Source: a virus
Taxonomy: Duplodnaviria > Heunggongvirae > Uroviricota > Caudoviricetes
DNA: 64,000 nt
Virus record (IMG/VR): IMGVR_UViG_3300037088_000797
Span: 1 to 64,000 of that record
Strand: one strand, 5' to 3'
Part shown: piece after piece, positions 4,564 through 37,840 of the stretch
Position numbering within the stretch: position 1 is the first letter of the stretch
How the letters are laid out: each line of letters starts with the position of its first letter
Position numbers and translations under genes: made by a program
The notes under the pieces: model-generated
The model's database searches: none
The model's input: only the letters and a program-made list of their open reading frames with translations
Told to the model about the DNA's origin: nothing

Positions 4564-4955
4564 TTCTTCTCAATTTTTATTAATTTAAGTCCTTCAACAA
4601 GACCCATTTCCAGTGCTTTTTCATGTGAATTAACGTGATAAAATCTTGTATATTCTTCCCATCTGGGAGAATTATTTTCGCCTTTGTAATATACAACAAA
4701 ATGACAATTATACAAATTTTGAATGCAATCATACATCGGTTCAACGTGAATTTTATGAATTTCTCTCAGCCACATTTGCAACAATGCCTGATCTGGTGCT
4801 GAAAACTGATCTTTAGTATTCGTGTGATTATAATTATCTACATGATGTAATCCGATATAATCATCGTATATACCCCAAAGATGTTCAGCACCATTATTAA
4901 ATCCTTTGTCTTTAGCTAAGACTGCTGTTTCTTCTCGAATTGGTTCTTCTCTCAT
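4560..4955 (-). CDS. hypothetical protein
   Basis: 131 aa; 4-nt start/stop overlaps with both neighbours (operon member). Confidence 0.45.
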   Translation of the reverse strand: MREEPIREETAVLAKDKGFNNGAEHLWGIYDDYIGLHHVDNYNHTNTKDQFSAPDQALLQMWLREIHKIHVEPMYDCIQNLYNCHFVVYYKGENNSPRWEEYTRFYHVNSHEKALEMGLVEGLKLIKIEKK

Positions 4956-9417: not shown

Positions 9418-9738
9418 TTAAAGTAATTCATCAGCAATTTTACCTAATTCTGTGCCAAACATTTCGGTAAGTTTTTTCTTATTTCTATTTTCAGCGAGTC
9501 TGAATAATTCAGAATGTGGAAGCACAAGTTCTTCAAGACTAAATCTTGGCGCATCAAGTTTTTTTTCATCGTACATCAGTTGATTTTCTGAAATTTGCAT
9601 ACATGAAAATGGTTTGCCAAGTTCACCAATTTCCAAGTCCTGATGGTTCAGAATTTTTGCTGAATATTGAAGACGTTCTGCATTCAAACGAATCCAGAGC
9701 AATCTTTCATTTTCATTTTTAAAGAAATTCTGTGCCAT
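9418..9738 (-). CDS. hypothetical protein
   Basis: 106 aa ORF. Confidence 0.45.
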   Translation of the reverse strand: MAQNFFKNENERLLWIRLNAERLQYSAKILNHQDLEIGELGKPFSCMQISENQLMYDEKKLDAPRFSLEELVLPHSELFRLAENRNKKKLTEMFGTELGKIADELL

Positions 9739-15241: not shown

Positions 15242-15622
15242 TCATTTGCACATTTCTTTAAGTTCTTCCCATGTAGGCTTCGTGCCTTCTGGTACAAAAA
15301 ATTCAATACCTTCTTGTGGGTCTCTAACACGACCATAGTATAATATATGTTTCTTTTCTTGTTCGTTATAAACTAAGTACGCACTGTCATATGGTGCACC
15401 ATCCATTACAAAATGATCAACGGTAGATGAATGAGTAAAATATTCTTCTTTACCAGATAACTCCGTGATTTGAAATTTACGCAAATCCCACCAGTCCTTT
15501 ACAAAATTTCCAGTGTTGAAGAATTTCTTTTGTTCTGGTTTACCATAATGTATTTCAACAGATTTGTAACCAAGATTTTCCTTGTCACTGCCTTCATCGT
15601 AATTAATGGTTGTAAATGCCAT
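15242..15622 (-). CDS. hypothetical protein
   Basis: 126 aa; promoter-like motif 15640-15670 upstream. Confidence 0.45.
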   Translation of the reverse strand: MAFTTINYDEGSDKENLGYKSVEIHYGKPEQKKFFNTGNFVKDWWDLRKFQITELSGKEEYFTHSSTVDHFVMDGAPYDSAYLVYNEQEKKHILYYGRVRDPQEGIEFFVPEGTKPTWEELKEMCK

Positions 15623-26317: not shown

Positions 26318-28258
26318 TTATTGACTTAAAAATTTTATTATCTTATCTTCATATGAATATGATAATTTATCGTTAATCTCGGTTTGTTTTAAATTCAAAC
26401 CATTTGTATTGCAAATTTCAAGAAAATGTTGAATTGTAATTCCATTGTTATCAACAGCATATTTAGTCAATGCTTTATATGTACCCATGTTTTTATTTAA
26501 AAGGTCTTTGGCTCTGGTTTTTTCTTCTTTTAATATTCCTTCAATAATTTCATCGGTTTTCTCTGTGCTATAATTAAGTTCTTGTGCCTGTGGTGCTTCT
26601 TTCTTAATTACTCTTGAAACAATGCCATCCATGCCATAATTTCTAACATATCTACCTGCAGCATCTGTCGCATTTGATATATCGGCATGTGCACCAACTG
26701 ATTTATAATCTTCACTAAAAACAAGTTCTTCTGCAACTAAACCACCTAAATAAATTGCGATACGATTTCTAAGAAACATTTTGTTTTCAATTGAACTATG
26801 ATTAATAACAAAACCTTCAGATAAACCAGAACTGTTTAAATTAATCTGTCTTGGCGGAGTTTTATATAAAATAGCATATAATAATGCATGACCCAATTCA
26901 TGAACAGTTACCAGTATTTTCTCGTCTTTTGTTTTTCCGCTACGGATATTATCTATGTCAAGCACAACATCTTTTTCGTATCTTTTTCCGTCAATATATG
27001 TGACTAATTGATTATCAATAATATCAAGAGACATTTTATCTAAGTCATTTACTAAACATAAATATAAAAAGAATGGTAAATTGCTGCCAAGCAGATTATA
27101 AACCGTTGAAATTGCTGGTCTTACGCCCTGTGTTGGAAACACACCGTTCCTATAAATTGCATCATAGATATTATCAAATAAAGTGATCTTAATATTATGT
27201 TCACTTTCAACCCTGTTAAGAATTAAAGCACAGTTTCTTTTAATAATTTCGTAATAACTTTTCTTATCCAAACAGGGATAAATAACATGGTTATTTCCAA
27301 ATCTTGCTATTTGTTCTGGCTTGAATTGTTTAGCCAAAGCATTTTTAATATGAATAATGTTGATTCTTTTGCTGAGTTCATGATATATATCGGCATCCCT
27401 TTCACTGTCTTCAACTTCATCAGCCATTGTAAATGCTTCATCAAGGTTGCCTGATATGAAGATAAGAAGTTTTTCATATGACTTGCCTTCATTGACATTG
27501 CCCAGCTTAAGACTGCTCTCCATGATCTCCATACGCTGTTCAAGACTCATTTTCATAATTTCTTCACCAGAAATATCCAAATTAAGCATTTTTTTGAATC
27601 TATTTGCAGTCCAATAAGATGTTTTATATTTATAATGTTTAATTTTCTTTTCTTCGTTAGTTATTTGTACCTTTTTACCTTTTTTTACTATTTTTGGTGG
27701 TTTATCTTCAATTTCATCATCAGGGTCATTTTCTCTTCTATCTGAATAATACATTTCTTCAAACAATAAGTCCAATATTTCTGTCCTACGTTGGGAATTA
27801 TTTTGAAATCTACCATCAGAAAGAAGCATCCAAATATCATTAAAATATTTATTTTCAACCATTGCACCGTTTTCATCTATGGTGCGATAACGTTGAATTT
27901 CGTCCAGAAGAAGTATGGCGGGTTCTTTCGAATCAATGCCAGAACTTTCCAGAAAATTTTCAATGTTTTTAGAATAATCGTTCTTCATGTCCATCTGGAT
28001 TTCAATGAACTTATCGGTAAACTTCAGCAGTTTAACCAAATTACGAACAAGATCGGTTTTACCAACACCTGTGATGCCCCAGAGAGAAACAATAAGAGGT
28101 CTAAACTGAAGTTCTGGAGTAAGATACCACAACGAAATGCTGTCAATTATTTTGTCAATTACTTCATCAATTCCAATAAATTTTTCTTTCAATGCTATTT
28201 TAACTTCTTCAAGTACTTCTCTTTTTGACTTAATGCGTTCAAGAAATTCGTTATTCAT
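26318..28258 (-). CDS. soluble FtsH-like AAA+ ATPase / M41 zinc metalloprotease
   Basis: Walker A GITGVGKTD, Walker B AILLLDEIQ; C-terminal TVHELGHALL (HExxH) plus IAIYLGGLVAEELVF and SVGAHADISNATDAAGRYVRNYGM closely parallel FtsH HEAGHA / LYGGRLAEE / STGASNDIKVAT blocks; no TM segments. Confidence 0.75.
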   Translation of the reverse strand: MNNEFLERIKSKREVLEEVKIALKEKFIGIDEVIDKIIDSISLWYLTPELQFRPLIVSLWGITGVGKTDLVRNLVKLLKFTDKFIEIQMDMKNDYSKNIENFLESSGIDSKEPAILLLDEIQRYRTIDENGAMVENKYFNDIWMLLSDGRFQNNSQRRTEILDLLFEEMYYSDRRENDPDDEIEDKPPKIVKKGKKVQITNEEKKIKHYKYKTSYWTANRFKKMLNLDISGEEIMKMSLEQRMEIMESSLKLGNVNEGKSYEKLLIFISGNLDEAFTMADEVEDSERDADIYHELSKRINIIHIKNALAKQFKPEQIARFGNNHVIYPCLDKKSYYEIIKRNCALILNRVESEHNIKITLFDNIYDAIYRNGVFPTQGVRPAISTVYNLLGSNLPFFLYLCLVNDLDKMSLDIIDNQLVTYIDGKRYEKDVVLDIDNIRSGKTKDEKILVTVHELGHALLYAILYKTPPRQINLNSSGLSEGFVINHSSIENKMFLRNRIAIYLGGLVAEELVFSEDYKSVGAHADISNATDAAGRYVRNYGMDGIVSRVIKKEAPQAQELNYSTEKTDEIIEGILKEEKTRAKDLLNKNMGTYKALTKYAVDNNGITIQHFLEICNTNGLNLKQTEINDKLSYSYEDKIIKFLSQ

Positions 28259-28289
28259 AATTTATCGTGTTTCATTTGTTTAGACAAAG

Positions 28290-29051
28290 TTACTTATATT
28301 TTTCAATTAAACAATTATATTTATTATATTTTCTATTTAAATAGATTGTAGATTTATTATACAAATATTTTAAACATTTAAATGCTGATTTACCATAATA
28401 AAATATTGCACAAATATTTTGATTATATGTTATATCTGGCATGTCTTTACTTCTTAATTTTATTTTAACTGTTTCAAAAAAATATTTTCGTATAAATTCA
28501 ACAGTCTTTTCAGTGCCTAAGAAACTAATAGTATCTGTTGTTGTATATGTAATACATCCATCGCCATCAAAATAACCACGAATGAAATCTTTAAGATATT
28601 TTTTTGGTATTTTATTACTAATTCCACAAGTTAATGATTTTTTGTTATATATTTTAAAGTTATTTTGCAAGTCTTTAATTATTTGTGGTGAAGATATAGT
28701 AATACTATAATATTCTTCTCTTTCAAATACAGTACCTTCATATTCAATTGTTTTTTTAAACTTATTTAAATGATCAACATCTTGTTTTTGTAATTTAATT
28801 TCCAATGCAAATCTTTTATTTGTTCTAATATATCCATCAGCTAATATAAAACCTGCCCAATAACAATTTTCTTTATTAAATTTTGAAAAATAAAAATTAT
28901 TTACTTTTATTCTTGATGTCCTTTTCCTAAGTTCAACATTTTCGCTTTTTAAATATTTTTGAATTGTTGTTCTATGTAAATTATATTTACGTGCCAACTC
29001 TTGTGTACCCAAATAATTGTTAACATAATCATTAATTATTAAATTTTTCAT
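28290..29051 (-). CDS. LAGLIDADG homing endonuclease
   Basis: Two LAGLIDADG-type motifs WAGFILADGYI and IRGYFDGDGCI; N-terminal HTH-like segment. Confidence 0.8.
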   Translation of the reverse strand: MKNLIINDYVNNYLGTQELARKYNLHRTTIQKYLKSENVELRKRTSRIKVNNFYFSKFNKENCYWAGFILADGYIRTNKRFALEIKLQKQDVDHLNKFKKTIEYEGTVFEREEYYSITISSPQIIKDLQNNFKIYNKKSLTCGISNKIPKKYLKDFIRGYFDGDGCITYTTTDTISFLGTEKTVEFIRKYFFETVKIKLRSKDMPDITYNQNICAIFYYGKSAFKCLKYLYNKSTIYLNRKYNKYNCLIEKYK

Positions 29052-29119
29052 AAAAAATGCTTTTTAAATAAATACTAAAAATTTTTTAAAAAGCATCTTG
29101 TTGTCCATAATATTAATAA

Positions 29120-29950
29120 TTAAGGCATATCTGGAATTAAATTATAAAGAAATTCCATGTCTTGTGTAAAAATTGGACATTCAACACTTTTCCAAACCGT
29201 TCTAAAATAATTTGTTGGTTCTTTAACATACGATTTAAAAACATCTGTCTTCATTTCAACAGTTTCTTTTATGATAAGTCTTCCTCTTTTTTGTTTTGCG
29301 GGATAGTCGTTCCAATTAATACCCCTTTGAAATATCATTTCTTGTTTTTGATCACTATTTTTGCCATCTACTTCTTTTTGACTGTAAAGATTACGTGCAA
29401 CACTTGAAATAGAATTTCTTGTAGCATCTTTTTGTCTCCAAACTATCATATTTCCAACTTCTGTTTTAGATGGTATTGTGAATACACGAGCATCAAAAGT
29501 TGCAAGTTTCATATTAAGAATGTCTTTCTCATATGGTTTAATTGAAATAAAACCATCTGAATCAATGCTGGTGGAATTTTTTATAATTCTTAATAATCTC
29601 AATCTGTTGAATTCGGCAGTAGCCAAACCAGCAGCAACACTAACGATCTTCTGGATATTACCATCAAACCATGCATCAGTACCAATTGCATCAAAATCAG
29701 TCATAAGAATAGAAATTTCATCAGACTGCACAAATGCAAATTTAGTACCTTGTATGTTCTTACAAAGATAAGAAGCAGTTGCATCCATATCATCAATAAG
29801 ACCCTGATCAAAAGGTTGTATTAAACCTCTGGTATAAGTGTGAAATGCCTTACCATCAACACGGATTATTGTATATGTCCTACGTGGAAGCAGAAACCTT
29901 GTTCTATCCTCATAATAGGATTTCATGCGATCTCCAAGTTCATCTTTCAT
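29120..29950 (-). CDS. Thg1-like protein (tRNA-His guanylyltransferase family, 3'-5' nucleotidyltransferase)
   Basis: MKSYYEDRTRFLLPRRTYTIIRVDGKAFHTYTR and FAFVQSDEISILM match Thg1 N-terminal catalytic blocks (RxDGxxFH, QSDE). Confidence 0.8.
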   Translation of the reverse strand: MKDELGDRMKSYYEDRTRFLLPRRTYTIIRVDGKAFHTYTRGLIQPFDQGLIDDMDATASYLCKNIQGTKFAFVQSDEISILMTDFDAIGTDAWFDGNIQKIVSVAAGLATAEFNRLRLLRIIKNSTSIDSDGFISIKPYEKDILNMKLATFDARVFTIPSKTEVGNMIVWRQKDATRNSISSVARNLYSQKEVDGKNSDQKQEMIFQRGINWNDYPAKQKRGRLIIKETVEMKTDVFKSYVKEPTNYFRTVWKSVECPIFTQDMEFLYNLIPDMP

Positions 29951-29951
29951 A

Positions 29952-30320
29952 TTATTCTCCTTTAAATTTATTTGTTGTTATTAATTTTAAAATTCTATCT
30001 TTTTCATCCCATGATTCAATTTCAAGTGTATCAAACATTTCAAATATCGGATAATTTAAAATTTCTTGTTGTTTGTACCTGTCTTTGATAGTTTTACCAT
30101 CGACATAAACAACATTAGCTTGAAATATTCTTTTACGAAGCGAATCATCTGCAACTGGTGTAGTAATGCGTTCGGACACTTCAACCAAACTAAAGTCGAA
30201 TTTTTCTGGTGAGTTAAGTAAATATGTTACGGCTGACCGTGCCATATCTTGACTCTCAGCTTTAATTACTACTTTTATAATCGTTTTACCGTCATTAAAT
30301 TCAAATTTGTACTCTTTCAT
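29952..30320 (-). CDS. hypothetical protein
   Basis: 122 aa ORF. Confidence 0.45.
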   Translation of the reverse strand: MKEYKFEFNDGKTIIKVVIKAESQDMARSAVTYLLNSPEKFDFSLVEVSERITTPVADDSLRKRIFQANVVYVDGKTIKDRYKQQEILNYPIFEMFDTLEIESWDEKDRILKLITTNKFKGE

Positions 30321-30321
30321 T

Positions 30322-30612
30322 TTACAAAAATTTAGTGTAATCCTCTAATCCTAACTCTGCTCCATCACCAAAAATGTAGCCAACCACAAAAAATATTACT
30401 TTACCGTCTTTACCACGAGTTAATGACATCAAACAGTCAGGTGAATCAGAGTAATCTCTTGGCGCATAAAACACACCCATATGATTTGGTATGTTTTCAT
30501 ATGCCTTTATCCAAGGAATTGCTAACAGTTCTTCTTTCGTGTTAACTTCGTGCTCAGTCATTTGATCTTCATAACCTGAGAAGAAATTTGGAAATCTTCT
30601 TTTTACTTTCAT
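30322..30612 (-). CDS. hypothetical protein
   Basis: 96 aa ORF. Confidence 0.45.
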   Translation of the reverse strand: MKVKRRFPNFFSGYEDQMTEHEVNTKEELLAIPWIKAYENIPNHMGVFYAPRDYSDSPDCLMSLTRGKDGKVIFFVVGYIFGDGAELGLEDYTKFL

Positions 30613-30751
30613 TTCTTTTTCTGTTTACCAATTATTCTATCACCTTTTAAATAACGTTTATATGCTTCAGGCACTTTTTTTGGTGACTGATAACTCTTTG
30701 CAAAGTTAGCAAACTCAATCATATCTTTACGTGAATATCGTCCCATATTTA

Positions 30752-30949
30752 TTATATTTTACATGGACACCAATCAGGTATTGCTACCTTATCAAAAGTT
30801 TCAACATATCCAGCAATCTTTTTACCATGTGCTTTGTTGCAAAACCAATTAAATGCCATTTCAAAACTATCTGCAGTATACATTCGTTCCTCTCTGAAAA
30901 AAGGACACTCACTACAATTTTTAATGCTGATTTTAATTTCCGTTGCCAT
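30752..30949 (-). CDS. small Cys-rich protein
   Basis: 65 aa; CSECPF...WFCNKAH...WCPC. Confidence 0.4.
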   Translation of the reverse strand: MATEIKISIKNCSECPFFREERMYTADSFEMAFNWFCNKAHGKKIAGYVETFDKVAIPDWCPCKI

Positions 30950-31096
30950 TTTCTTCCAGTTTTATATCCAAATATTTCTTTTCCATGTCTCTCATAAGAC
31001 TGGCATCTTGAAATTCACCGATATTAACTAAGGTGTACTTTAATTCTATCACCAATTTCAAGATTTTATCTTTATCTTCTGCTGTTATTATTCTCA

Positions 31097-31960
31097 TTAT
31101 TTCAACGTACTGTTAAGTTTCTGTTTGAATAATTGAACTGTTTTATTACCAATAGCTTTACTTGCTTCACGTGATTCAATTATCTCACCTTTACCTTCCC
31201 TGTATACATCTTCAATCATTGCTTTAATGATTGTAGGTACACCTTCCATGCTGATATCAACAGGTAGTTTCTGAAGTACGTGTTCCAGACGAAGATTGGT
31301 AACCCATTCTTCAGCAATTGCTTTAGCTTCTTCAAGAACTTTAACCTGCTCTGGAGTTACCTCACGTTTAGATTTAGTTTCCATTTGTTCATCTGGTTTA
31401 TACTTACATATAACTCTCTCACCATTATTAGTTTTCATTTCAATCAATGGGCGGAGAACAATACCTTCACGTTTTTGTGGCTCTACAATACCATTACGAA
31501 CAGCTTGAACTGAATTACTGTCTCTTTCTGCAGTAAGCGTTTCCAAGTCTGTGGTAATCTTATTGTAAGATACAAACTCCAGACTAAATTGTTTGCAAAC
31601 ATCTTCTGCATTTGGTACATTAAGCCAAACATCACCAACGTAAACGTCAAAGCCAATAAATTTAAGAACTTTGCCATATCTAAATGATTGACCCTGTTGT
31701 TTACCACCATATGCTTCGCCATAAATGGTTACATCAACATCTGGAAAAATTTCAGCAAATTTGGCTTTAAGAAAGTCTTTGTTGAATAATGCAGCAAATG
31801 CTACATTACTTTCGCCACCACTACTGTAACGAACGTCTTTGCTTTCAAATTTCCAACCAATATGTGTTGATGTGCCATGAATTTTTTCCATAGCATAACA
31901 TTCTTTAAATAAAAGAATTGTCTGTGACTTATATAGGTTCTCTATATGTAGGTATCCCAT
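31097..31960 (-). CDS. RNA ligase, Rnl2 family
   Basis: Motif I EKIHGTS (T4 Rnl2 EKIHGTN, lysine nucleophile), YGEAYGGKQQG (cf. FGEFAGPGIQKN), EGIVLRP (cf. EGYVLKP), ICKYK (motif V). Confidence 0.8.
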   Translation of the reverse strand: MGYLHIENLYKSQTILLFKECYAMEKIHGTSTHIGWKFESKDVRYSSGGESNVAFAALFNKDFLKAKFAEIFPDVDVTIYGEAYGGKQQGQSFRYGKVLKFIGFDVYVGDVWLNVPNAEDVCKQFSLEFVSYNKITTDLETLTAERDSNSVQAVRNGIVEPQKREGIVLRPLIEMKTNNGERVICKYKPDEQMETKSKREVTPEQVKVLEEAKAIAEEWVTNLRLEHVLQKLPVDISMEGVPTIIKAMIEDVYREGKGEIIESREASKAIGNKTVQLFKQKLNSTLK

Positions 31961-31973
31961 TGTAAATAATTTA

Positions 31974-32486
31974 TTAGTAAGTATTTATATAATTTTTAAT
32001 ATCATCGATGTTAAGTTTATTTTTTTCAATGAATCCAATAAGTATGTTGCAACTTGAACATAATAATGCTCTGTTTTTATTTGTTTCATGTGAATGATCA
32101 ACTGCCAACATTTTTTTATTTTCTTCTTCAGTTCTATGACAAATAGCACAACCATTACCTTGATTATTTAATATTACGTTATATTCTTCAAGCGTAATAC
32201 CGTATTTCCTTTTTAATGTGCTGTTTCTATATTTTAATTTATCTCTCATATATTGATCTTTTTTCGCATTTTTTCCTTTTTCAGTATCATAATATATTTC
32301 CAACATTTCACGATTACATTCTTTACAATGAGAACCTATTTTGCCTCTTGTTTTCATTGTAGAAAATTCATCAAGGTCTTTTACTTTTTTACATCGTGGA
32401 CAATATTTTTTATGTTGCTTTAATAATTCTTTTGCTTTAAGTGATGATATTTTTAATTTCATTGTAATTTTAACATTAATAAACAA
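31974..32486 (-). CDS. endonuclease VII-like HNH endonuclease with N-terminal zinc finger
   Basis: CAICHRTEEENKKMLAVDHSHETNKNRALLCSSCN matches T4 endoVII / HNH motif; CPRCKK...HCKECN zinc finger. Confidence 0.7.
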   Translation of the reverse strand: MFINVKITMKLKISSLKAKELLKQHKKYCPRCKKVKDLDEFSTMKTRGKIGSHCKECNREMLEIYYDTEKGKNAKKDQYMRDKLKYRNSTLKRKYGITLEEYNVILNNQGNGCAICHRTEEENKKMLAVDHSHETNKNRALLCSSCNILIGFIEKNKLNIDDIKNYINTY

Positions 32487-32663
32487 TCTGATCTGTGAAT
32501 ACCATCATAACAACCACAGTATTCGCATTTTTTTCCTAATGCTTCTTTCGCATTTGCAATTGCTACCCCTAATGCAACAAATGCATCTTCGCTGATAGTA
32601 ACTGTTTTCTTTTTTTTCTTCTCCATAACTTTTAATTAAAAACGTTTTTAATGTACTGATAGA

Positions 32664-32687
32664 AGGTCCGCACATGAGTGCGGACCT
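32664..32687. terminator. GC-rich hairpin AGGTCCGCAC-ATGA-GTGCGGACCT (no adjacent U-tract)
   Basis: Perfect 10-bp stem, 4-nt loop; core GGTCCGCAC shared with hairpin at 56858-56882. Confidence 0.5.
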
Positions 32688-32812
32688 CAACCAGACAGGT
32701 TTAGTTGCCAACTTTCCTTTGTGACGGAGCTTCCTTTATCTCGATGAACGGGGGTTCATCAGGTAGGCATGTTATCCGTCCTTTCAACACGCAGCCATCG
32801 TGTTAGTAATCG

Positions 32813-32917
32813 AGCGCAGTTCGGGATTCGAACCCAAAAGATGTTGTAATTACTGGTGCACCTTCTACATCTACCGTACCTTCCGATACGTGCCTTAACC
32901 AATTAGACTACCCACGC
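32813..32917 (-). tRNA. tRNA-like gene (about 105 nt, atypical; isotype undetermined)
   Basis: On minus strand: acceptor GCGTGGG/ACTGCGC (2 GU + 1 mismatch), U8-A9, D-arm GTCT-AATTGGTTA-AGGC, canonical T-arm TTGGG-TTCGAAT-CCCGA, discriminator T; anticodon region irregular (CGTA stem with 8-nt loop UCGGAAGG) and a 36-nt extra region with AGATGT/ACATCT stem. Confidence 0.4.
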
Positions 32918-33204
32918 ATAAAAGAAATCTTTCTGTCCGTCCCAAGCAACGAAATGGCTTTTCAGTCCGCTATGGGTCTGTGTGGCTGTCATAATGCGCA
33001 TCGTTGAGAGGCGTGCCAACCTACTGCTATCCTTCGATAAACTACACTCTACTTGAAATTGAGTGAACTTTCGTTATAAGTGAATCGTCTGTTTGCATAG
33101 ACTGGACTTTTTAGAGACTTCCAGAATTATTAACGCAGAACCTTATAGTTTACCTACAGGCAGAAAGACTATGTTTTCAAAGAACTATTTGCAAAGTTAC
33201 TATT

Positions 33205-33618
33205 TTAAAGTAGATTCGCAATGTATTTTATACTTTTTTCTGCATTCTCCATTTCTTTTTTTATAAATGGTAAAATTTTTGCTTTACTATTTTCATCAAA
33301 TACTCTGTCACCAGTCTCTGTGAAATATATCTTTAAGAGCGATACAAGATTAAGCGGTGGAGTAAGTTTATTACGAATATCTGCACCAACTGTATTTGTT
33401 TCATACAATTCAAACTCAATTAGTTCAAGATCGTCCAGAGTAATTTGATCTGGAAGCGGAGTGCAACCTTTATAATATTCTTTCAAACCTTCCATCGTTG
33501 CTGTCAATGGCTGTGGTTTAGGAAGTTCACCAGTATACATTATCATTACTTTATCAAGAGTATCAATAGTAACGAATTCTTTTGGTTCTACCTTTTTTCT
33601 AAGTGCTTTAAATTTCAT
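33205..33618 (-). CDS. hypothetical protein
   Basis: 137 aa ORF. Confidence 0.45.
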   Translation of the reverse strand: MKFKALRKKVEPKEFVTIDTLDKVMIMYTGELPKPQPLTATMEGLKEYYKGCTPLPDQITLDDLELIEFELYETNTVGADIRNKLTPPLNLVSLLKIYFTETGDRVFDENSKAKILPFIKKEMENAEKSIKYIANLL

Positions 33619-33624
33619 GATTAT

Positions 33625-33819
33625 TTATTTATATAGTTCAACATATTCTTTTATTTCATTCAGTCCCTCATAAGGATATGCGCTATCAGGGACTATTAAT
33701 GTTGGTACATTAACATCGTTACAAGCCAGTATTGTAACAAAATCAATTTTGGCTTCTTTTAGAAGTTTTTCGGCTTTATCGCCATCTTCATGGTGTGACT
33801 TAAAAAAAATGATTTTCAT
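33625..33819 (-). CDS. hypothetical protein
   Basis: 64 aa ORF. Confidence 0.35.
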   Translation of the reverse strand: MKIIFFKSHHEDGDKAEKLLKEAKIDFVTILACNDVNVPTLIVPDSAYPYEGLNEIKEYVELYK

Positions 33820-34133
33820 AATAATTCTTTTGTTACAATTTCAACAAGTTTTTTCATAAATATTCTATCGAATATCATACCTGACTGATAGTCGCCATAA
33901 TTATCTTCGGTGATAACCAAATCAGGAGTGCTTTTAGGTATTGCAACTTCTCTGGTCATTGGCTCACTACCATCTTTCACAGTATCCATGTCAAAGCCAC
34001 CAAAACCATCACATTCTGCATAACGAACTTTGTGTTTGAATGTTACTTTTTTCACGATATGATCTTTTAATAAAACTTTGTTTACCAGATCAACATCAAT
34101 GAATGTTTCTAATTTCATGTATTGTTGTTTCAT
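33816..34133 (-). CDS. hypothetical protein
   Basis: 105 aa ORF. Confidence 0.45.
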   Translation of the reverse strand: MKQQYMKLETFIDVDLVNKVLLKDHIVKKVTFKHKVRYAECDGFGGFDMDTVKDGSEPMTREVAIPKSTPDLVITEDNYGDYQSGMIFDRIFMKKLVEIVTKELL

Positions 34134-34336
34134 ATTGCTATTTGTTTTTTCATTGGTAATGTGTTCTTGTACGAGTAAACATCATGCATTGTTCTTTGCA
34201 GATTAGATAGTGCTTCTTCTTTTGTTTCTCCCTCTGAAATTACATTGGGAAACTCCTTAAAAAATATGGTGAAGCCACCTTTGGGGTCTTCTACATATAT
34301 TGGAGTTACTGGTATTGTAAGCATGCATACACTCAT
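34130..34336 (-). CDS. HicB-like (UPF0150) small protein
   Basis: EGETKEEALSNLQ resembles HicB antitoxin-family G.T.EEAL.N motif. Confidence 0.4.
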   Translation of the reverse strand: MSVCMLTIPVTPIYVEDPKGGFTIFFKEFPNVISEGETKEEALSNLQRTMHDVYSYKNTLPMKKQIAI

Positions 34337-34638
34337 TTTATTTCCTCCTTTTTAACTCTAAATGAATGTTCTTCATTGTGAGCATTTGTTTTAATTTCGT
34401 CCCTTAATTTTTTACCTATGCGTTCTGCAGCAATTCTTGCATTTACACACCAACGCAGGTCTTCTTTGGTATAAGGATGACCATCAAGTGTTGCAATACC
34501 CTCCCAAACATTTCTGCCTTTTGGTGGTATGCCTTCAACTTGCTTTAATTCAATCAGCAAGCTCAAATCTTTCGGCTCTCTATCGAGAGTATAAGATAAT
34601 TTATAACTGCCTTTAAGTTCCATGTTTTTTAAAATCAA
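34333..34638 (-). CDS. hypothetical protein
   Basis: 101 aa ORF. Confidence 0.45.
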   Translation of the reverse strand: MILKNMELKGSYKLSYTLDREPKDLSLLIELKQVEGIPPKGRNVWEGIATLDGHPYTKEDLRWCVNARIAAERIGKKLRDEIKTNAHNEEHSFRVKKEEIK

Positions 34639-34798
34639 GTGTTATTGTAATAAATTCATTACCGTCATCAAATTTACCTGCTTTGCTGACAAACATCATA
34701 GTACCATCTGCTTTAATCAGATCAATGATTTGTTGCTTATTTGTTGCAACAGTACCTTTTTTATAGGTTTCCTGATAAACAATTTTTTTCTTTTCCAT
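34613..34798 (-). CDS. hypothetical protein
   Basis: 61 aa ORF. Confidence 0.35.
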   Translation of the reverse strand: MEKKKIVYQETYKKGTVATNKQQIIDLIKADGTMMFVSKAGKFDDGNEFITITLDFKKHGT

Positions 34799-34809
34799 AA
34801 GTATTAATT

Positions 34810-36015
34810 TTATAAGTCTACTCTGAAACGTAATGCCACAGGAAAACGTGGTTTCTTGTTCTTTTTCGTATAACCCTGATATTGAACAGTGACGATCTTT
34901 CCAACAACTTTTGATTTATCATCAGCATATAATTTAAGATCGTCCATTTTACCTTTGAGTTTTACATCAAATGTCACACCTTCAGGTAATTGTTGATCTT
35001 CTTTGGTTCTTTCACAAACAAATATTGCTTTACCTGCCATAATTCCTTTATTTCCAACTTTTATATCAACAATACGAAATTCATCATCGTCAAACACTTT
35101 CACTTTTTGTAAATCGTATGAACGTTTATTTACGTATTTTCCATCGAAATTTCTGACAATAGCACCTTCATATCCCATTTCCATAAAGTCTTCATACGCT
35201 TGCATCAGTTCTTCTTTGTTGTTAACAATTCTTGATTCAACTATATGAACTGGAGTACCTTCAAATTCTAATCTCAGGCTTTCCAGTATTTCATAACGTT
35301 CAAAATTAGTTAAGTTATTGTCTGGAATATCATATACGTGATATTGAATATTCTCATATCCTTCTTTGGGTTCGTCTTGTGTTATTAATGAAGTCAAGTC
35401 TTCGAAGTTTTCCTTGTAGGCATGATTATAAAGTTCACCATCCAATCTTTCCAGATGACATCTATTAAGTGTAGTTGATATATGTGGTGCACTATTAATT
35501 CTCTTTCTGGTTCGTGACCACAATGATACGTTATATATTATTTTGGATAACGGCATTGGTATACCTTCCTCACTGTATTTGCCAACAACTTCAAGATTAT
35601 CTTTTTGTGATGTACATCTGTGACCATCCAGTTTAGGTTGTGCTATTGCAGGAAATTTAATTTTATGTCCCTGTTCCCAATATTTATGTGCAAGTATTGG
35701 AAATACACCGCCTTCAATAACATCATCAGTTATACCTGCTTGTGCATCTTCAATGGTTTGTGCATAACCCTTTTTAAGCTGTTTTTCCCATCTGCTTTTG
35801 GCTTGTGCTTCTGCTTGTTCAAGCGCAGTTGTGGCATTTGTTTTACCTGTGTTTTTACCTTCAGGTACTTGTTCTCGGCTTTCTTGAATTTTGCCGTCAA
35901 CCTGTCCATAGTAGTTTATAATGGTCGCAACACCATTGAGTTCTTCTACACTGACTTGCCATTCTTGAATAGCACCAGTACTGGTTTTCTTGTAAAGTTT
36001 TTGAAATTCTTTCAT
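34810..36015 (-). CDS. ATP-dependent DNA ligase
   Basis: Motif I PKLDGHR (KxDG), motif IV EGAIVR, motif V DLQKVK. Confidence 0.8.
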   Translation of the reverse strand: MKEFQKLYKKTSTGAIQEWQVSVEELNGVATIINYYGQVDGKIQESREQVPEGKNTGKTNATTALEQAEAQAKSRWEKQLKKGYAQTIEDAQAGITDDVIEGGVFPILAHKYWEQGHKIKFPAIAQPKLDGHRCTSQKDNLEVVGKYSEEGIPMPLSKIIYNVSLWSRTRKRINSAPHISTTLNRCHLERLDGELYNHAYKENFEDLTSLITQDEPKEGYENIQYHVYDIPDNNLTNFERYEILESLRLEFEGTPVHIVESRIVNNKEELMQAYEDFMEMGYEGAIVRNFDGKYVNKRSYDLQKVKVFDDDEFRIVDIKVGNKGIMAGKAIFVCERTKEDQQLPEGVTFDVKLKGKMDDLKLYADDKSKVVGKIVTVQYQGYTKKNKKPRFPVALRFRVDL

Positions 36016-36016
36016 A

Positions 36017-36247
36017 TTACCATTTATTTCTTTTTTTACCTGTCATCAATTCTGTGATTACATCTGAAAGATATTCAGAAGCTGTCATAAAAAGTACCCA
36101 AAGACAAACAAGTGGAAAAATAACTATTGCTACCCCTCTCCATTCATCAGTATCAGTAAGATCGTTGTCATCAAAAAGAATTATTACTGTTCTACCTATT
36201 ATAAAGTAAACAATAACGCCCAAGATAATTAAAATTGCTAATGTCAT
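36017..36247 (-). CDS. small membrane protein
   Basis: 76 aa, two TM-like segments. Confidence 0.4.
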   Translation of the reverse strand: MTLAILIILGVIVYFIIGRTVIILFDDNDLTDTDEWRGVAIVIFPLVCLWVLFMTASEYLSDVITELMTGKKRNKW

Positions 36248-36258
36248 ATTATTTTTAT

Positions 36259-37053
36259 TTAAGGTTTATAATTTTTTACCATTTCTCTTTGCAAATATTG
36301 ATAAAACCATTTGCTTAACATGTTCGGAAGTTTTGCATAGTCAGCAAAACCATATAATCCACAACTGAAAAAGTCATGTACTTCAACAACGAATGTATGA
36401 TAATCGTTCACTCCAACGTCCAGAGTATATGCTACTGGTGCAGTACCTGATTTTTCATAAGCACTTACCATATTGCTGATTGATTGAATCTGGGGAAATT
36501 TAATAAATTCACCACTATAATGCTTTAATCCAACTATTTTACCTTCAAAAACAAAGGTGCGCCATTCACTATCAATGGTGATGTATTCAGAAATTTGATA
36601 ATGTCCTGCAGGTATATTCCACACGTGATTTTCATCCAGTCTAAGAACTTCAGCAAAACCTTTAATTTTCTCATTACTTTTCACAAACCATTTGCCTCTA
36701 CGATCTTCCAAGTCCATATGATTACCGTTTATTATTGGTCTTTGAGAATATCGCACGTCAAATAAGCATTCAGGTACATTTATTGGCTTTGGTGTTAAAC
36801 CGTAAAAGTGACTCAAAAATTCTGTTACAAATTCAACACTACCAACTGGCACATAGTTTTTGTGACATGGCTTAAATTGTATGGGATAAATATCATTAGG
36901 TTCAGTTACTTCAATATAATCAAGAAACTTTACTTTGATTTTATCTTTATCATCGTTACATGCCAGCCAGTTCTTAAATCTTACTGACTCAAGCAAGGCG
37001 AAAGTGAAATCATGCCTGATTTCTCCGTTGATTTTTTGAATAAGAAATTTCAT
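36259..37053 (-). CDS. hypothetical protein
   Basis: 264 aa ORF. Confidence 0.45.
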   Translation of the reverse strand: MKFLIQKINGEIRHDFTFALLESVRFKNWLACNDDKDKIKVKFLDYIEVTEPNDIYPIQFKPCHKNYVPVGSVEFVTEFLSHFYGLTPKPINVPECLFDVRYSQRPIINGNHMDLEDRRGKWFVKSNEKIKGFAEVLRLDENHVWNIPAGHYQISEYITIDSEWRTFVFEGKIVGLKHYSGEFIKFPQIQSISNMVSAYEKSGTAPVAYTLDVGVNDYHTFVVEVHDFFSCGLYGFADYAKLPNMLSKWFYQYLQREMVKNYKP

Positions 37054-37247
37054 TAGTAGCGATTATTTACCTGTTTTAAAATATCTCCTTCATAAATTTC
37101 CCAGAGTTCAATATTACCTTTAATGTAATTCTTAACATCTGGATTCTCAGTTTCTGCTAAATCAGCATACAATGATTTAAGCACATCACTGCAGCTTATG
37201 AAAACCTGTCCGTTGTTTACTTTTGAAGCAATTCTCATTCGTGCCAT
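37053..37247 (-). CDS. hypothetical protein
   Basis: 64 aa ORF. Confidence 0.35.
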   Translation of the reverse strand: MARMRIASKVNNGQVFISCSDVLKSLYADLAETENPDVKNYIKGNIELWEIYEGDILKQVNNRY

Positions 37248-37249
37248 AA

Positions 37250-37840
37250 TTAAAAAGTTTTATGTGTAAAAAAAATTTTTATATTCTCTACTATTGTGGG
37301 TGTTAAGCCACAGTACTTGTCACATTGAAAGAAATTGAATTGTTGTTTTAATAACATATCCGAATCATCGTCTATTATTGCATATTGATGAAAATCAAAA
37401 TAATGCACACCAAACCACTTCATACAATTATCTTTAAGCCATTTACTTATTTCAGTACCTCTTTCATATCCTGTATATGGTGTTTTATCGATAATTGTAA
37501 AGGTTGCACCGCAATAATTAAATATCTTTTGCAAGTCTTCTACCGACCAACTACTTCTCAATGAAGCACTAATAACGATTGCTGAATTGGTTTCCTTGCA
37601 AAGCCAATTCAATAAACCGATACGCATTTCGCAGGTTTCGCTTTTATAATACTCCAGATCGGTGAGTTGCTTTTGTTTGAGTTGCTTACGAAGATACTTT
37701 TTAACTATCTTATATAAAGGTATACCATCATAACGTTCAAGTACTGCAAACTTCTCGGTATAGAAAAGCTGGCAATTCAGAACGCCATCATGATCAAGAA
37801 AAATAACATGATCGAATTTATTTACTTCTGGTTCAACCAT
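37250..37840 (-). CDS. HAD-like hydrolase (putative phosphatase)
   Basis: HVIFLDHDGVLNC resembles HAD motif I (hhhhDxDx[TV]); similar to gene 40241-40726. Confidence 0.4.
   Translation of the reverse strand: MVEPEVNKFDHVIFLDHDGVLNCQLFYTEKFAVLERYDGIPLYKIVKKYLRKQLKQKQLTDLEYYKSETCEMRIGLLNWLCKETNSAIVISASLRSSWSVEDLQKIFNYCGATFTIIDKTPYTGYERGTEISKWLKDNCMKWFGVHYFDFHQYAIIDDDSDMLLKQQFNFFQCDKYCGLTPTIVENIKIFFTHKTF

Follow-up and report, generated by a model that had tools for sequence, protein, structure and literature searches.

Does the tRNA-like element on the minus strand of this phage sequence encode a tRNA of unusual geometry, or an RNA that has left decoding altogether? The element occupies 105 nt of the window, by which we mean the whole 64,000-nt stretch of DNA that was analysed. 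A sequence-only reading of the locus had considered a suppressor or frameshift tRNA, an intron-bearing tRNA and a tRNA-like decoy, and had proposed ARAGORN and Rfam searches as well as a covariance comparison with homologues. From position 32917 to 32813, the minus strand folds into a cloverleaf in which an acceptor stem, U8, a D arm and a perfect T arm can be recognised. The gene, which we call type A, comprises the following parts.

32813..32917, minus strand: type A tRNA-like RNA gene, 105 nt from G1 to the discriminator U73
32917..32911, minus strand: 5' strand of the acceptor stem, GCGTGGG, which pairs with ACTGCGC at 32820..32814
32910..32909, minus strand: T8 and A9, preceding the D arm
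32908..32892, minus strand: D arm, GTCT/AGGC with the DNA loop AATTGGTTA
32892..32908, minus strand: the D arm written as RNA, GUCU-AAUUGGUUA-AGGC, with U8 A9 before it and A26 after it
32890..32875, minus strand: hairpin at the anticodon position, CGTATC-GGAA-GGTACG, in the MFE fold
32872..32839, minus strand: oversized variable arm of 34 nt, with a 6-bp stem (AGAUGU/ACAUCU) and a 22-nt loop
32862..32855, minus strand: self-complementary loop motif GGUGCACC (as DNA, GGTGCACC), a proposed kissing or dimerisation site
32837..32821, minus strand: T arm, TTGGG-TTCGAAT-CCCGA, including GGGTTCGAATCCC at 32835..32823
32813, minus strand: discriminator T (U73)

The T arm, U8A9 and the D arm are present as first read, and the acceptor stem of the window copy contains the two GU pairs and the single mismatch that had been noticed, namely U4.G69, G5.U68 and G7.A66. 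CCA is not encoded; C-G-A directly follows the discriminator U73. A hairpin does exist in the anticodon region, but the two forms previously given for it (4 bp with an 8-nt loop, 5 bp with a 6-nt loop) are sub-optimal compared with the best fold of 32890..32875, which has 6 bp (CGUAUC/GGUACG) and a GNRA tetraloop, GGAA, at 32884..32881. The insertion beyond it forms its own 6-bp stem (AGATGT/ACATCT) and carries GGTGCACC and a second palindrome, GTAATTAC, in the loop of the arm, as had been described; its length is 34 nt and not 36 nt.

The covariance comparison bore this fold out. Twenty-nine distinct type A members were collected, every one from huge-phage or metagenome contigs. Because these 29 homologues show compensatory changes in all five helices, it is they that make the case for more than chance, and not the folding energy of the element, which is uninformative (z = -0.68). 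Pairing holds in 89.7% of the cells of the type A alignment, and double changes occur in 19 of the 27 pairs. The covariation score is 0.570 (n = 29) against 0.240 in shuffles, none of 500 shuffles reaching 0.570, and partner-slid controls scored at most 0.097. The 7-bp acceptor stem, the D arm and the T arm, together with the tertiary nucleotides U8, A14, G18G19 and UUCRANY, make up the body of a tRNA. All four pairs of the D stem show double changes (the 10-25 pair, for example, is G-C in 16 members and A-U in 13), and A14 and G18 G19 are conserved in the D loop. In the T arm, 98.6% of cells are paired, with double changes in three pairs and a conserved UUCRANY loop, and the variable arm is found in 29 of 29 members with compensatory changes in all five modelled stem pairs. 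The family can be defined by a GCG..CGC-U73 end, a D/T elbow, a long variable arm bearing (G)GUGCAC(C) and, in the place of an anticodon arm, a capped hairpin, a definition that the window copy fits.

With default settings, ARAGORN reported zero tRNAs and zero tmRNAs in the 64-kb window, and the window copy, aligned over positions 1-71 of the 71 in the Rfam tRNA model RF00005, scored 23.3 bits, below the gathering score of 29. Eight homologues do pass this score (29.8-44.9 bits), as do two nearby tRNA-like elements that belong to other types (L008, and L091 1120-1246). The type A covariance model R1 gives the window copy 111.5 bits, a score to be read knowing that this copy is among the seven sequences that built the model; 22 other distinct members, which were found independently, reach 51-105 bits. 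A blastn search of 50,697 phage records with the 1-kb island as query returned no match, and the deposited phage that is closest by its ligase protein, LR745208.1 (485 kb, 57% identity), has no type A element near the ligase gene. A 47-aa ORF that overlaps the element (32902..32759) was rejected, since no reading frame is conserved through the element across the 29 homologues. We conclude that the element is a genuine gene for a tRNA-shaped RNA, conserved within a group of huge phages.

What the family lacks is an anticodon loop. The arm at the anticodon position has covarying stems of 3-7 bp, closed by loops of 4-8 nt that are conserved neither in length nor in sequence (GGAA, GGGA, GAAA, GGGAA and others; 8 are GNRA and 11 GGGAA). 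A 7-nt loop occurs in 0 of 29 members, so no arm with U33, an anticodon and a purine at position 37 is present. Default ARAGORN found none of the 29; in a relaxed, intron-aware mode it called 26 of them, but with 12 different identities and contradictory anticodons, and the introns that it was forced to place (7-32 nt, at positions 32-40) yield no consistent model. The 34-nt insertion sits between the anticodon-position arm and the T arm, which is the position of the variable arm and not of the anticodon loop. When the variable arm was removed in silico, the cloverleaf kept a 6-nt loop with a 2-base 'anticodon'.

These results bear directly on the possibility of a decoding tRNA of unusual geometry, be it a suppressor or frameshift tRNA or one that carries an intron. 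Such a tRNA would account for the tRNA-like cloverleaf body, it has company in the suppressor tRNAs (tta, tca, cta) found at the same locus in related phages, and relaxed ARAGORN can be forced into an intron model. However, a suppressor or frameshift tRNA is contradicted by the complete lack of 7-nt loops, the spread of lengths from 4 to 8 nt and the unconserved loop sequence. An intron-bearing tRNA fails as well: the supposed intron occupies the variable position and is an arm that is conserved and covaries, its removal leaves a 6-nt loop and restores no anticodon arm, and the forced models disagree in identity (12 in all) and in intron length (7-32 nt). Both suggestions of the sequence-only reading have to be given up, and we regard a decoding function as scarcely credible. 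Class II tRNAs (Leu, Ser, Tyr, Sec) were likewise ruled out by the invariant U73, by the 34-nt arm with its 22-nt loop and by the missing anticodon loop. Class II tRNAs have A73 (Leu and Tyr) or G73 (Ser and Sec), and their variable arms measure about 13-21 nt, those of class I tRNAs 4-5 nt. By sequence and structure, the element is a tRNA mimic in a non-coding RNA operon and not a decoding tRNA. The general idea of a tRNA-like, non-decoding RNA is thereby supported, and to act as a decoy may be one function of such an RNA.

At the acceptor end, the first three pairs and the discriminator are invariant or nearly so (G1-C72 and G3-C70 in 29/29, C2-G71 in 28/29 with one U.G, U73 invariant), while pairs 4-7 vary with compensation across the family. 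This end is under sequence-specific constraint. G1-C72, C2-G71, G3-C70 and U73 correspond to the acceptor identity set of bacterial tRNA-Gly, and these elements are included in the bacterial glycine identity set given in Table 1 of PMC9976931. C35 and C36, on which bacterial GlyRS relies as well (PMC9976931), are both absent from type A, so that charging by GlyRS, if any, would be inefficient. A pattern scan with the T arm and the acceptor 3' strand otherwise retrieves ordinary phage tRNA-Gly and tRNA-Cys genes. The likeness to tRNA-Gly (class I, RF00005) comprises the 7-bp acceptor stem with its three identity pairs and U73, U8, the 4-bp D stem, the D loop with A14 and G18G19, A26, the 5-bp T stem and UUCRANY, whereas type A has neither a 7-nt anticodon loop nor C35/C36 and possesses a 34-nt variable arm. 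Type A most likely descends from a tRNA-Gly gene.

GUGCAC is found in the variable-arm loop of 29/29 members, an apparent invariance that is inflated because part of the family was collected with a GTGCAC-containing pattern, leaving only seven unbiased members. All seven of these, which were found via the ligase gene with GTGCAC not a search term, carry the palindrome, and a scan that did not require it returned no long member without it. The loop 8-mer reads GGUGCACC in 24/29, AGUGCACU in 2/29, GGUGCACU in 1/29 and GGUGCACA in 2/29. Of the variants, AGUGCACU is a double change that preserves the palindrome through compensatory A..U flanks, and GGUGCACU has a G.U flank. The self-duplex of GGUGCACC has a predicted energy of -17.5 kcal/mol, and type A probably forms a homodimer through a loop-loop duplex of this motif. 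In HIV-1 subtype A/F, the loop AAGUGCACA of the dimerisation initiation site forms a kissing-loop homodimer. Both hairpin loops present a GUGCAC palindrome with purine flanks, whereas their contexts are unrelated and the type A loop is much larger (15-22 nt), which makes the comparison an analogy of mechanism alone.

A decaying tRNA pseudogene would fit the G.A mismatch and the sub-threshold Rfam score of the window copy, and an element that acts as DNA, for instance an attachment site or a palindrome to which a protein binds, would fit GGTGCACC, which is palindromic as DNA too. Yet compensatory changes in five helices over 29 sequences would not be expected if the element were a pseudogene or acted as DNA. 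In type B elements, the apex has another self-complementary sequence, which in locus L007 is kept solely via G.U and so favours an RNA-level over a DNA-level reading; self-complementarity through G.U only in L083 points to RNA in the same way. Given also the fixed orientation of the gene within a promoter-to-terminator unit, we assign a pseudogene or DNA-level element a very small chance of being correct.

As far as sequence motifs tell, that unit is a promoter-to-terminator non-coding island, in which tRNA-like modules flank two further candidate RNAs, termed U and D.

33192..33199, minus strand: Bacteroides-type -7 box, TAACTTTG (TAnnTTTG), upstream of the island
32926..33170, minus strand: 'U' RNA candidate of ~245 nt, with the closing helix AGUCUUUCUG / CAGAAAGAUU
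32664..32812, minus strand: 'D' RNA candidate, starting at the base after the discriminator

GC content is 0.42-0.47 within the island and 0.25-0.36 in its flanks. U ends 8 nt before G1 of the tRNA-like gene in the window; nhmmer finds it conserved in at least 10 loci, and its consensus fold shows closing and internal helices. D has nhmmer matches in 35 loci. It includes a hairpin, ACACG-AUGGCUG-CGUGU (32803..32787), as well as a helix that covaries, and its last element is the GC hairpin at 32687..32664 to which the first reading had drawn attention. The helix that closes U and parts of D show no sequence variation, so these regions neither support nor contradict those folds. Neither candidate matched an Rfam family at gathering or permissive settings, the only hit being a sub-threshold abiF-like hairpin at 33013..32995, within U. 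The abiF motif is absent from the main-text discussion of PMC5737381. A short peptide frame in the 3' part of D was rejected, as a 2-nt indel between two D subtypes shifts it.

In other loci, a canonical terminator that includes a U tract closes D; the terminal hairpin of the window has no U tract, and scans for sigma-70 promoter and terminator consensus sequences gave nothing over background, with no terminator in the window. The TAnnTTTG box was spotted by inspection and then counted, and it lies 17-26 nt upstream of G1 in the 8 loci that have type A as first element. The TAnnTTTG consensus is found in papers on Bacteroides promoters (e.g. PMC4747536).

The arrangement of the modules follows a recurrent grammar. 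Nearly half of the type A copies (14/29) lie just downstream of the 3' strand of the U closing helix, with a short linker rich in U and A in between. An intact T arm and acceptor 3' strand precede D in 20 of 24 distinct loci; in L039, the T loop before D is a variant, GTCGAAT, that the test pattern missed, and the remaining 3 of 24 keep only a T-loop or acceptor-strand remnant upstream, so that an intact tRNA-like module is not strictly needed there. The module orders seen include U-A-D, A-U-C-D, U-A-C-D, A-D and B-D.

Such a layout would suit pure punctuation, in which the tRNA-like module merely recruits RNase P and RNase Z and so frees U and D. Precedents include mitochondrial tRNA punctuation, MALAT1 mascRNA and the tRNA-miRNA units of MHV68; in the MHV68 TMER vtRNAs and in mascRNA, cuts by RNase P and RNase Z set the ends of the adjacent non-coding RNA. 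Like type A, these are tRNA-like modules without a decoding function, whereas they are eukaryotic nuclear RNAs and lack the giant variable arm, the palindromic loop and the aminoacylation identity set. A tRNA-like module stands at every U/D boundary, types A, B and C are interchangeable at the same boundary, and ordinary tRNAs occupy this slot in more distant relatives. For processing, however, an acceptor/T minihelix alone suffices. Punctuation leaves unexplained the invariant G1-C72, C2-G71, G3-C70 and U73, the D/T elbow, the covarying 34-nt arm and the GGUGCACC loop, and type A also occurs first, before U, with nothing upstream to release. We therefore consider punctuation as the whole function unlikely.

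U, the tRNA-like module or modules and D might also stay joined as domains of one large RNA that assembles as GOLLD and ROOL do. The tRNA-like part would then be a linker or assembly module, and its palindromic and GNRA loops would contact other molecules. In GOLLD, the 3' region is universally conserved and the 5' region less so, and the linker sometimes holds tRNAs; both GOLLD and ROOL oligomerise by kissing loops and A-minor contacts of the GNRA type (PMC12286853). These are phage RNAs near tRNA islands, and the present island shares with them that it is phage-encoded and adjoins tRNA genes. Its universal D, optional U and intervening tRNA-like modules recall the GOLLD layout, and types A and B both bear self-complementary loops. 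However, the GOLLD and ROOL models gave no match over 32400-33400 (gathering, and E up to 10) nor in 11 homologous loci (E up to 1); there is no homology in sequence or structure, and the parts described here are much smaller and modular. The modules are moreover shuffled and separable (A-U-C-D, U-A-D, A-D without U), and U is closed by its own helix. The sole candidate pairing between U and D, of the D hairpin loop UGGCUG with CAGCCA in U, was rejected: loop and target show no covariation across loci, and the U segment pairs and covaries within U. A joined assembly of this kind is improbable.

The RNA-repair genes next to the element, already recognised from the sequence, were confirmed by Pfam as RNA_ligase, Thg1 and HAD_SAK_2, and the island lies upstream of the RNA ligase/Thg1-like repair cluster in all related loci. 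The ligase belongs to the ATP-dependent RNA_ligase family and is not RtcB. An R2K ATP-grasp protein is encoded in the neighbourhood as well. On the upstream side of the island, a conserved 137-aa ORF (33618..33205) has 176 homologues, all unnamed save one with an evidently spurious label. It matched no PHROG or Pfam family, and its confident AlphaFold model (pLDDT 87.5) matched no PDB fold at E <= 0.001 and gave no functional clue.

This neighbourhood raises the prospect of a cis-regulatory sensor, in which the tRNA-like module and D would make up a leader, its terminator controlling read-through into the ligase and Thg1 genes, the cue being the state of tRNAs or of tRNA-targeting enzymes. In L002, L007, L009 and L010, the D terminator lies 37-60 nt upstream of the ligase start, and no TAnnTTTG box lies between the two in L002, L007 and L009, the three loci read; elsewhere just small ORFs intervene, often of the homing-endonuclease type. 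Yet 1-3 genes separate the D terminator from the ligase in most loci, the window included, no alternative antiterminator pairing was found, and the tRNA-like modules vary in number and type. We hold regulation of this sort to be highly doubtful.

The reading that we favour, with a probability of roughly 55%, is that type A is a gene for a non-decoding tRNA mimic that derives from tRNA-Gly, is processed, dimerises and engages a protein that reads acceptor ends. Starting from the observed structure, its conservation, the absent anticodon and the grammar of the operon, we infer processing, CCA addition, dimerisation and the protein partner. From its tRNA ancestor, the RNA would have kept the acceptor/T minihelix, the D-loop/T-loop elbow and the glycine acceptor identity set; a short capped hairpin would have replaced the anticodon loop, and the variable region would have grown into a 34-nt arm that displays GGUGCACC. 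Transcription from a Bacteroidota-type promoter would yield a polycistronic non-coding operon of U, the tRNA-like module or modules, D and a terminator. Host RNase P would cut at G1, and RNase Z or an equivalent after U73, releasing a stable, tRNA-shaped RNA of ~105 nt; the same cuts would fix where U ends and where D begins. Once free, the tRNA-shaped RNA is likely to serve as a substrate for CCA addition and would probably homodimerise via a kissing duplex of GGUGCACC loops. Because the island keeps a fixed position upstream of the ligase/Thg1-like/HAD-SAK genes and the acceptor end is constrained, the most likely role would lie in phage-host tRNA conflict, where the RNA would engage a protein reading tRNA acceptor ends as a decoy, sponge or scaffold.

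A more specific proposal, which we rate as rather unlikely, is that a dimeric, CCA-tailed and maybe glycylated tRNA-Gly mimic acts outside decoding as an RNA counter-defence or as a scaffold for repair enzymes. The phage would deploy type A alongside the U and D RNAs and further cargo-bearing tRNA chassis, among them the Leu-like type C, to titrate host toxins or sensors of acceptor ends, for example TacT-type acetyltransferases, which read U73 and G71. Toxins of the nucleotidyltransferase or pyrophosphokinase kind, whose site of action is the 3' end, could be further targets. Alternatively, type A might serve as a scaffold for the neighbouring ligase, Thg1-like and HAD-SAK repair enzymes.

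Non-decoding tRNA mimics are already known, namely Y RNAs, tmRNA, mascRNA and viral tRNA-like structures. In Salmonella, the rsr-yrlBA-rtcBA RNA-repair operon places YrlA beside an RNA ligase gene. YrlA is a non-decoding RNA with a tRNA-like D/T/acceptor module that also occurs in phages, can be cleaved by RNase P and accepts CCA; the stem that binds Ro60 is built from its 5' and 3' ends, whereas its acceptor-like stem is a closed stem-loop (PMC4201824). Jumbo phages with Ro/TROVE and a tRNA-like partner have been described (PMC7824862). Type A resembles the YrlA Y RNAs in being non-decoding, in its tRNA-like module and in having an RNA ligase gene in the vicinity, whereas its ends form an open acceptor stem and its neighbouring ligase is of the RNA_ligase family and not RtcB. 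The Rfam Y RNA model did not match the element, and no TROVE domain was found among the 20 neighbouring ORFs scanned.

The tRNA-like domain of tmRNA has no anticodon and is charged via acceptor-stem identity alone. Type A is likewise an acceptor/T-arm mimic without an anticodon. Unlike tmRNA, it has a full D arm, no tag reading frame and no G3.U70. The sequence-only reading had named a T arm that belongs to a different RNA class, such as tmRNA, as an outcome that would speak against a tRNA-like gene; ARAGORN was negative for tmRNA on both the window and the element, and no Rfam tmRNA match was obtained.

A catalogue of 10,006 viral structured-RNA candidates mentions tRNA-like ones (PMC10690425). 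In the literature, we found no description of a phage family with a full glycine-type tRNA body, a capped hairpin and a palindrome-tipped giant arm, nor of an operon in which several tRNA chassis flank two structured RNAs at an RNA-repair cluster. For annotation, ARAGORN misses type A genes and Rfam scores them at or below threshold, so that such genes of huge phages are missed or mislabelled as odd tRNAs. Were the counter-defence or scaffold proposal true, type A would give phages an equivalent of the Ro/Y-RNA module that is built on another architecture, and RNA mimics of tRNA would join the known anti-defence repertoire. If the inferred steps of the favoured reading hold, the family would represent a naturally occurring tRNA scaffold with which small RNAs could be produced and stabilised in hosts that are probably Bacteroidota, would allow RNA-RNA dimerisation to be tested within a tRNA fold, and would provide a new handle on the phage-host conflict over tRNA.

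The type A element, a 105-nt tRNA-like RNA gene on the minus strand, has the following parts in the window copy.

Window type A, 32917..32813, minus strand
Acceptor stem, 7 bp: GCGUGGG/ACUGCGC, with U4.G69, G5.U68 and a G7.A66 mismatch
U8 A9: between acceptor stem and D stem
D stem, 4 bp: loop AAUUGGUUA, then A26
Anticodon-position hairpin: best fold 6 bp, CGUAUC/GGUACG, with a GGAA tetraloop
Extra arm, 34 nt: AGAUGU/ACAUCU stem, 22-nt loop containing GGUGCACC and GUAAUUAC
T arm: UUGGG-UUCGAAU-CCCGA
Discriminator U: CCA not encoded

The sequence-only reading had described a perfect T arm, U8 A9 with a D arm, and an acceptor stem with two G.U pairs and one mismatch, all of which are present. 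Its anticodon-region hairpin exists, but the optimal fold is the 6-bp GGAA form and not 4 bp with 8 nt or 5 bp with 6 nt; its inserted arm with a 6-bp stem (AGATGT/ACATCT) also stands, at 34 and not 36 nt. This arm occupies the class II variable-arm site, with G44 U45 ahead and one base behind. ARAGORN reported zero tRNAs and zero tmRNAs over the 64-kb window, and no Rfam family reached its gathering score over 32400-33400. The Rfam tRNA model nevertheless aligned end to end with type A (23.3 bits versus a threshold of 29), and no family model put the T arm in another RNA class. As is usual for tRNAs, the folding energy was no better than that of shuffled sequence (z = -0.68). With tools split and folding energy like that of shuffles, the window sequence alone cannot decide whether the element is real.

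Homologues were sought with the RNA ligase gene, 0.9 kb downstream, as anchor. This yielded 41 related IMG/VR loci on contigs reaching 363 kb, many of which conserve a 580-nt non-coding region in full (nhmmer); seven, six distinct in sequence, carry the tRNA-like part. A covariance model built from those loci (R1) and DNA-pattern scans of viral, metagenome and genome collections extended the family to 29 distinct sequences, every one on a phage or metagenome contig. The sole 'bacterial' record, in a Paceibacterota MAG, turns out to be the same 362,763-bp phage contig, which had been binned there.

Standard pairs fill 89.7% of cells in the 29-sequence alignment versus 71.6% in shuffles, and in 19 of 27 pairs both partners change. 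Covariation scores 0.570, compared with 0.240 for shuffles (0/500 reach 0.570) and at most 0.097 with partners slid by 1-3 columns. Every helix covaries, with compensatory pairs in the acceptor, D, anticodon-position, variable and T arms, so that the proposed comparison with homologous phages came out in favour of the element. Eight homologues pass the Rfam tRNA gathering score (29.8-44.9 bits), as do two neighbouring tRNA-like elements of other types, and no conserved reading frame runs across the family. Type A is a genuine gene for a structured RNA, folded as a tRNA. The rival reading as a pseudogene or DNA site could appeal to the sub-threshold window copy, and has the family-wide covariation against it.

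Can such a gene decode? The anticodon-position arm measures 13 to 23 nt across the family, and its loop is most often 5 nt (13 members) or 4 nt (10), less often 6 nt (4) or 8 nt (1), but never 7 nt. The loops include GGAA, GGGA, GAGA, GAAA, GGGAA, CACAA, AUUU and AUUUGAUG, with no conserved U33, anticodon or purine 37. ARAGORN called 0/29 members by default and 26/29 under relaxed, intron-aware settings, as Phe, Stop, Leu, Thr, Cys, Ser, Gln, Pyl, Ile, Gly and Ala. The 'introns' it proposed lie at positions 32-40 and differ among members (7-32 nt); these calls are forced fits sharing nothing. The window copy minus its extra arm does give a default cloverleaf, but its loop has 6 nt and its 'anticodon' two bases. 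We thus reject type A as a decoding or intron-bearing tRNA, both of which the sequence-only reading had entertained. A suppressor or frameshift tRNA fails on the missing 7-nt loop and the unconserved loop sequences. The supposed intron is a conserved, covarying arm at the variable-arm site, for which the ARAGORN models are mutually inconsistent.

The acceptor end is nearly invariant: G1-C72, G3-C70 and U73 occur in 29/29 members and C2-G71 in 28/29 (one U.G), while pairs 4-7 vary freely with compensation. The bacterial glycine identity set comprises G1-C72, C2-G71, G3-C70 and U73 plus C35 and C36 (Table 1, PMC9976931). Type A has exactly the acceptor part of this set and lacks C35 and C36. The elbow is also kept (U8, A14, G18G19, T loop UUCRANY). 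A pattern scan with the T-arm/acceptor 3' side found type A members and otherwise only ordinary phage tRNA-Gly(tcc) and tRNA-Cys(gca) genes; in the window copy A15 and U48 form an ordinary Levitt pair, unlike the G15:G48 pair of tRNA-Cys. The simplest reading, judged from sequence, is that type A may descend from a tRNA-Gly gene. The TacT toxin reads U73 plus G71, a combination specific to tRNA-Gly (PMC9976931). A protein would read the conserved acceptor end, making type A a decoy, sponge or scaffold; GlyRS, an acceptor-end-targeting host toxin and a phage repair enzyme are candidates, each unlikely when taken singly.

Type A lies in a non-coding island (GC 0.42-0.47 versus 0.25-0.36 in the surroundings), with no ORF on the gene strand within 33200..32664, and is flanked by two further structured RNA candidates, U and D.

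Other island features in the window
33199..33192, minus strand: TAACTTTG, match to the Bacteroides-type -7 box TAnnTTTG, upstream of U
33170..32926, minus strand: U RNA candidate, ~245 nt; closing helix AGUCUUUCUG/CAGAAAGAUU, internal helices covary
32812..32664, minus strand: D RNA candidate, ~150 nt, with hairpin ACACG-RUGGCUR-CGUGU, a covarying helix and a terminal hairpin

The closing helix of U is invariant (10-13 bp). A hairpin within U (33013..32995, minus strand) has the loop CCUCUCAACGAU, equal to positions 8-26 of the Rfam abiF motif (22.4 bits, gathering score 37), and most U homologues retain GCCUCUYNRCRAUGC. D contains invariant AUAACGUGCC, AAGGAAG, AGGAAAG and AAACCU, and its terminal hairpin is a classic terminator with a U tract in most loci. 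The first D hairpin (5-6 bp stem, 7-nt loop N-U-GGC-U-N) resembles an anticodon stem-loop; the GGC in its loop doubles as a glycine codon and is complementary to tRNA-Gly(GCC). The TAnnTTTG consensus, taken from papers using it, recurs 17-26 nt upstream of G1 in the eight loci where type A comes first (L006, L009, L068, L077, L082, L083, L097, L099). The gene is embedded in a promoter-to-terminator unit. The box suggests a possible Bacteroidota host, and weak similarity of the ligase to Prevotella Lak phages and crAss-like phages points in the same direction.

The islands also hold other tRNA-like elements, and the orders seen are U-A-D (window), A-U-C-D, U-A-C-D, A-D and B-D.

Further tRNA-like elements in related loci
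Type B: L010 5498-5605; L007 5719-5836; L039 4233-4349
Type C: L003 5154-5285; L013 1398-1548; L005 4392-4549; L002 5724-5868
Other chassis: L008 5463-5592; L062 about 9530-9700

Type B shares the GCG..CGC-U73 acceptor end of type A and has a near-palindromic apex. In type C the D arm is leucine-like and the discriminator is A73; bacterial leucine identity lists A73, tertiary elements and a large variable region, with no anticodon determinants (Table 1, PMC9976931). Where a tRNA has its anticodon and variable region, these chassis families all carry long inserts, which differ from family to family.

The tRNA-like modules mark the boundaries of the two other RNAs. In 20/24 distinct loci the tRNA-like element ahead of D is intact, and D starts at the base directly after its discriminator. 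L039 has a variant T loop that the test pattern missed, and L001, L006 and L045 keep a mere remnant beside a shared AT-rich upstream sequence: a T-loop/acceptor remnant in L006 (TTCGAATCCTTATCTTGCGCT) and L045, further degraded in L001. In L006 this sequence is a ~0.85-kb insert (4060-4925) between a type C element and the remnant just ahead of D, with a reverse-strand ORF of repeated Cys-rich motifs; it resembles a homing-endonuclease gene inserted into a tRNA-like gene. On the other side, 14/29 type A copies lie directly downstream of the 3' strand of the U closing helix, separated from it by a short linker rich in U and A, which measures 8 nt in the window. We favour a model in which RNase P and RNase Z (or an equivalent) would cut out the module, thereby maturing U and D (probability about 0.6). 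Under the rival of pure punctuation, type A would be a mere processing signal; the boundaries fit this as well, but it leaves the conserved acceptor end and palindromic arm unexplained. After excision, CCA addition would be an even bet: C74 is nearly invariant across tRNA-like types, and the bases after the discriminator are C-[G/A]-A, one base off CCA, in nearly all of them, before U or D alike (window 32812..32810).

The variable-arm loop contains GUGCAC in 29/29 type A members, although most were gathered via a pattern containing GTGCAC, so that the fair sample for the motif is smaller. It is present in 7/7 ligase-anchored members, and a scan without this requirement found no long member missing it. 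The 8-nt motif is the self-complementary GGUGCACC in 24 of the 29 and AGUGCACU in 2, where both sides changed and the palindrome was kept; the rest have GGUGCACU (1, with G.U) or GGUGCACA (2). Since the palindrome is unable to pair inside its own loop, it pairs between molecules or is a symmetric site that is read. The type B apex, CUGACAUGCAUGACAG, differs in sequence and is self-complementary, in L007 solely through G.U pairs, which favours RNA-RNA pairing over a DNA site. The predicted self-duplex of the type A loop has -17.5 kcal/mol, and GUGCAC with flanking purines is the kissing-loop dimerisation site in some HIV-1 subtypes. Type A would dimerise through GGUGCACC, with the odds standing about level. 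Elsewhere in the window, GGTGCACC occurs only at 15393-15400, within ORF 15622..15242, giving 2 copies per 64 kb versus 0.2 expected by chance.

The island unit is syntenic with RNA-repair genes, as the sequence-only reading had noted for the surroundings of type A: Pfam/PHROG matches include RNA_ligase, Thg1-like and HAD_SAK_2. In the window, a dense cluster of RNA/DNA repair and mobile-endonuclease genes surrounds it (37840..26318, minus strand).

Neighbouring genes, all minus strand (Pfam/PHROG assignments except 33618..33205)
37840..37250: HAD_SAK_2
37053..36259: R2K ATP-grasp protein
36015..34810: DNA ligase, ATP-dependent
33618..33205: conserved 137-aa protein gene, always ahead of the island; 176 homologues, all in this phage group
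32486..31974: Endonuclease_7 (Endonuclease VII-like)
31960..31097: RNA_ligase
29950..29120: Thg1-like
29051..28290: LAGLIDADG endonuclease
28258..26318: AAA/M41 protease (AAA plus peptidase M41, FtsH-like)

The 137-aa protein has no Pfam or PHROG match; AlphaFold models it confidently, as a beta-sheet plus long C-terminal helices, and the model matches no fold in the PDB. Across related loci the island always lies between this ~135-codon gene and the RNA ligase gene. Some loci have it directly upstream of the ligase, as a cis-regulatory leader of the ligase operon would be; elsewhere small, often endonuclease-like genes intervene, and D mostly ends in a terminator. More distant relatives have ordinary tRNAs in the island slot (Ile, His and suppressors tta, tca, cta).

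Suppressor-type tRNAs with tRNA-Ile or tRNA-His
L023/L024/L040 5628-5703; L025 8490-8564; L029 4796-4866

These suppressor tRNAs lie at or near the locus, mostly immediately upstream of the RNA ligase (the L025 cta is downstream), and hint that part of the phage group may recode stop codons.

Type A shares the fold and likely ancestry of tRNA but fails its defining anticodon-loop feature, and for this reason we do not file it as a tRNA. By analogy, YrlA, a bacterial Y RNA, is probably its nearest functional counterpart. The Salmonella rsr-yrlBA-rtcBA operon places the YrlA gene next to one for an RNA ligase. [quoted passage not shown] Ro/TROVE, whose cellular counterpart works with a tRNA-like partner RNA, is carried by some jumbo phages (PMC7824862); no TROVE gene was found among the 20 neighbouring ORFs scanned. 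Membership of the YrlA/Y RNA class is rejected, as type A has an open acceptor stem, no Ro-binding stem and no Rfam match. In processing, type A is comparable to mascRNA and the MHV68 vtRNAs. GOLLD and ROOL, like type A, are phage RNAs near tRNAs with a potential for kissing loops, and their linker at times holds tRNAs (PMC12286853). This likeness would suit a further rival, type A as a domain of one large self-assembling RNA; Rfam searches of 32400-33400 and 11 homologous loci found no homology of the island to GOLLD or ROOL.

No description of the family was found in Rfam 15 or the searched literature, although the family may be among the 10,006 viral RNA candidates of one catalogue. The type A gene specifies a tRNA-shaped RNA that lacks an anticodon and has an acceptor end of glycine type and a palindromic arm. 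Its function is only what we infer, whereas its structure and context are firm and would surprise specialists in tRNA or phages: a non-decoding tRNA mimic, of a known kind, with an unusual operon of cargo-bearing tRNA chassis.
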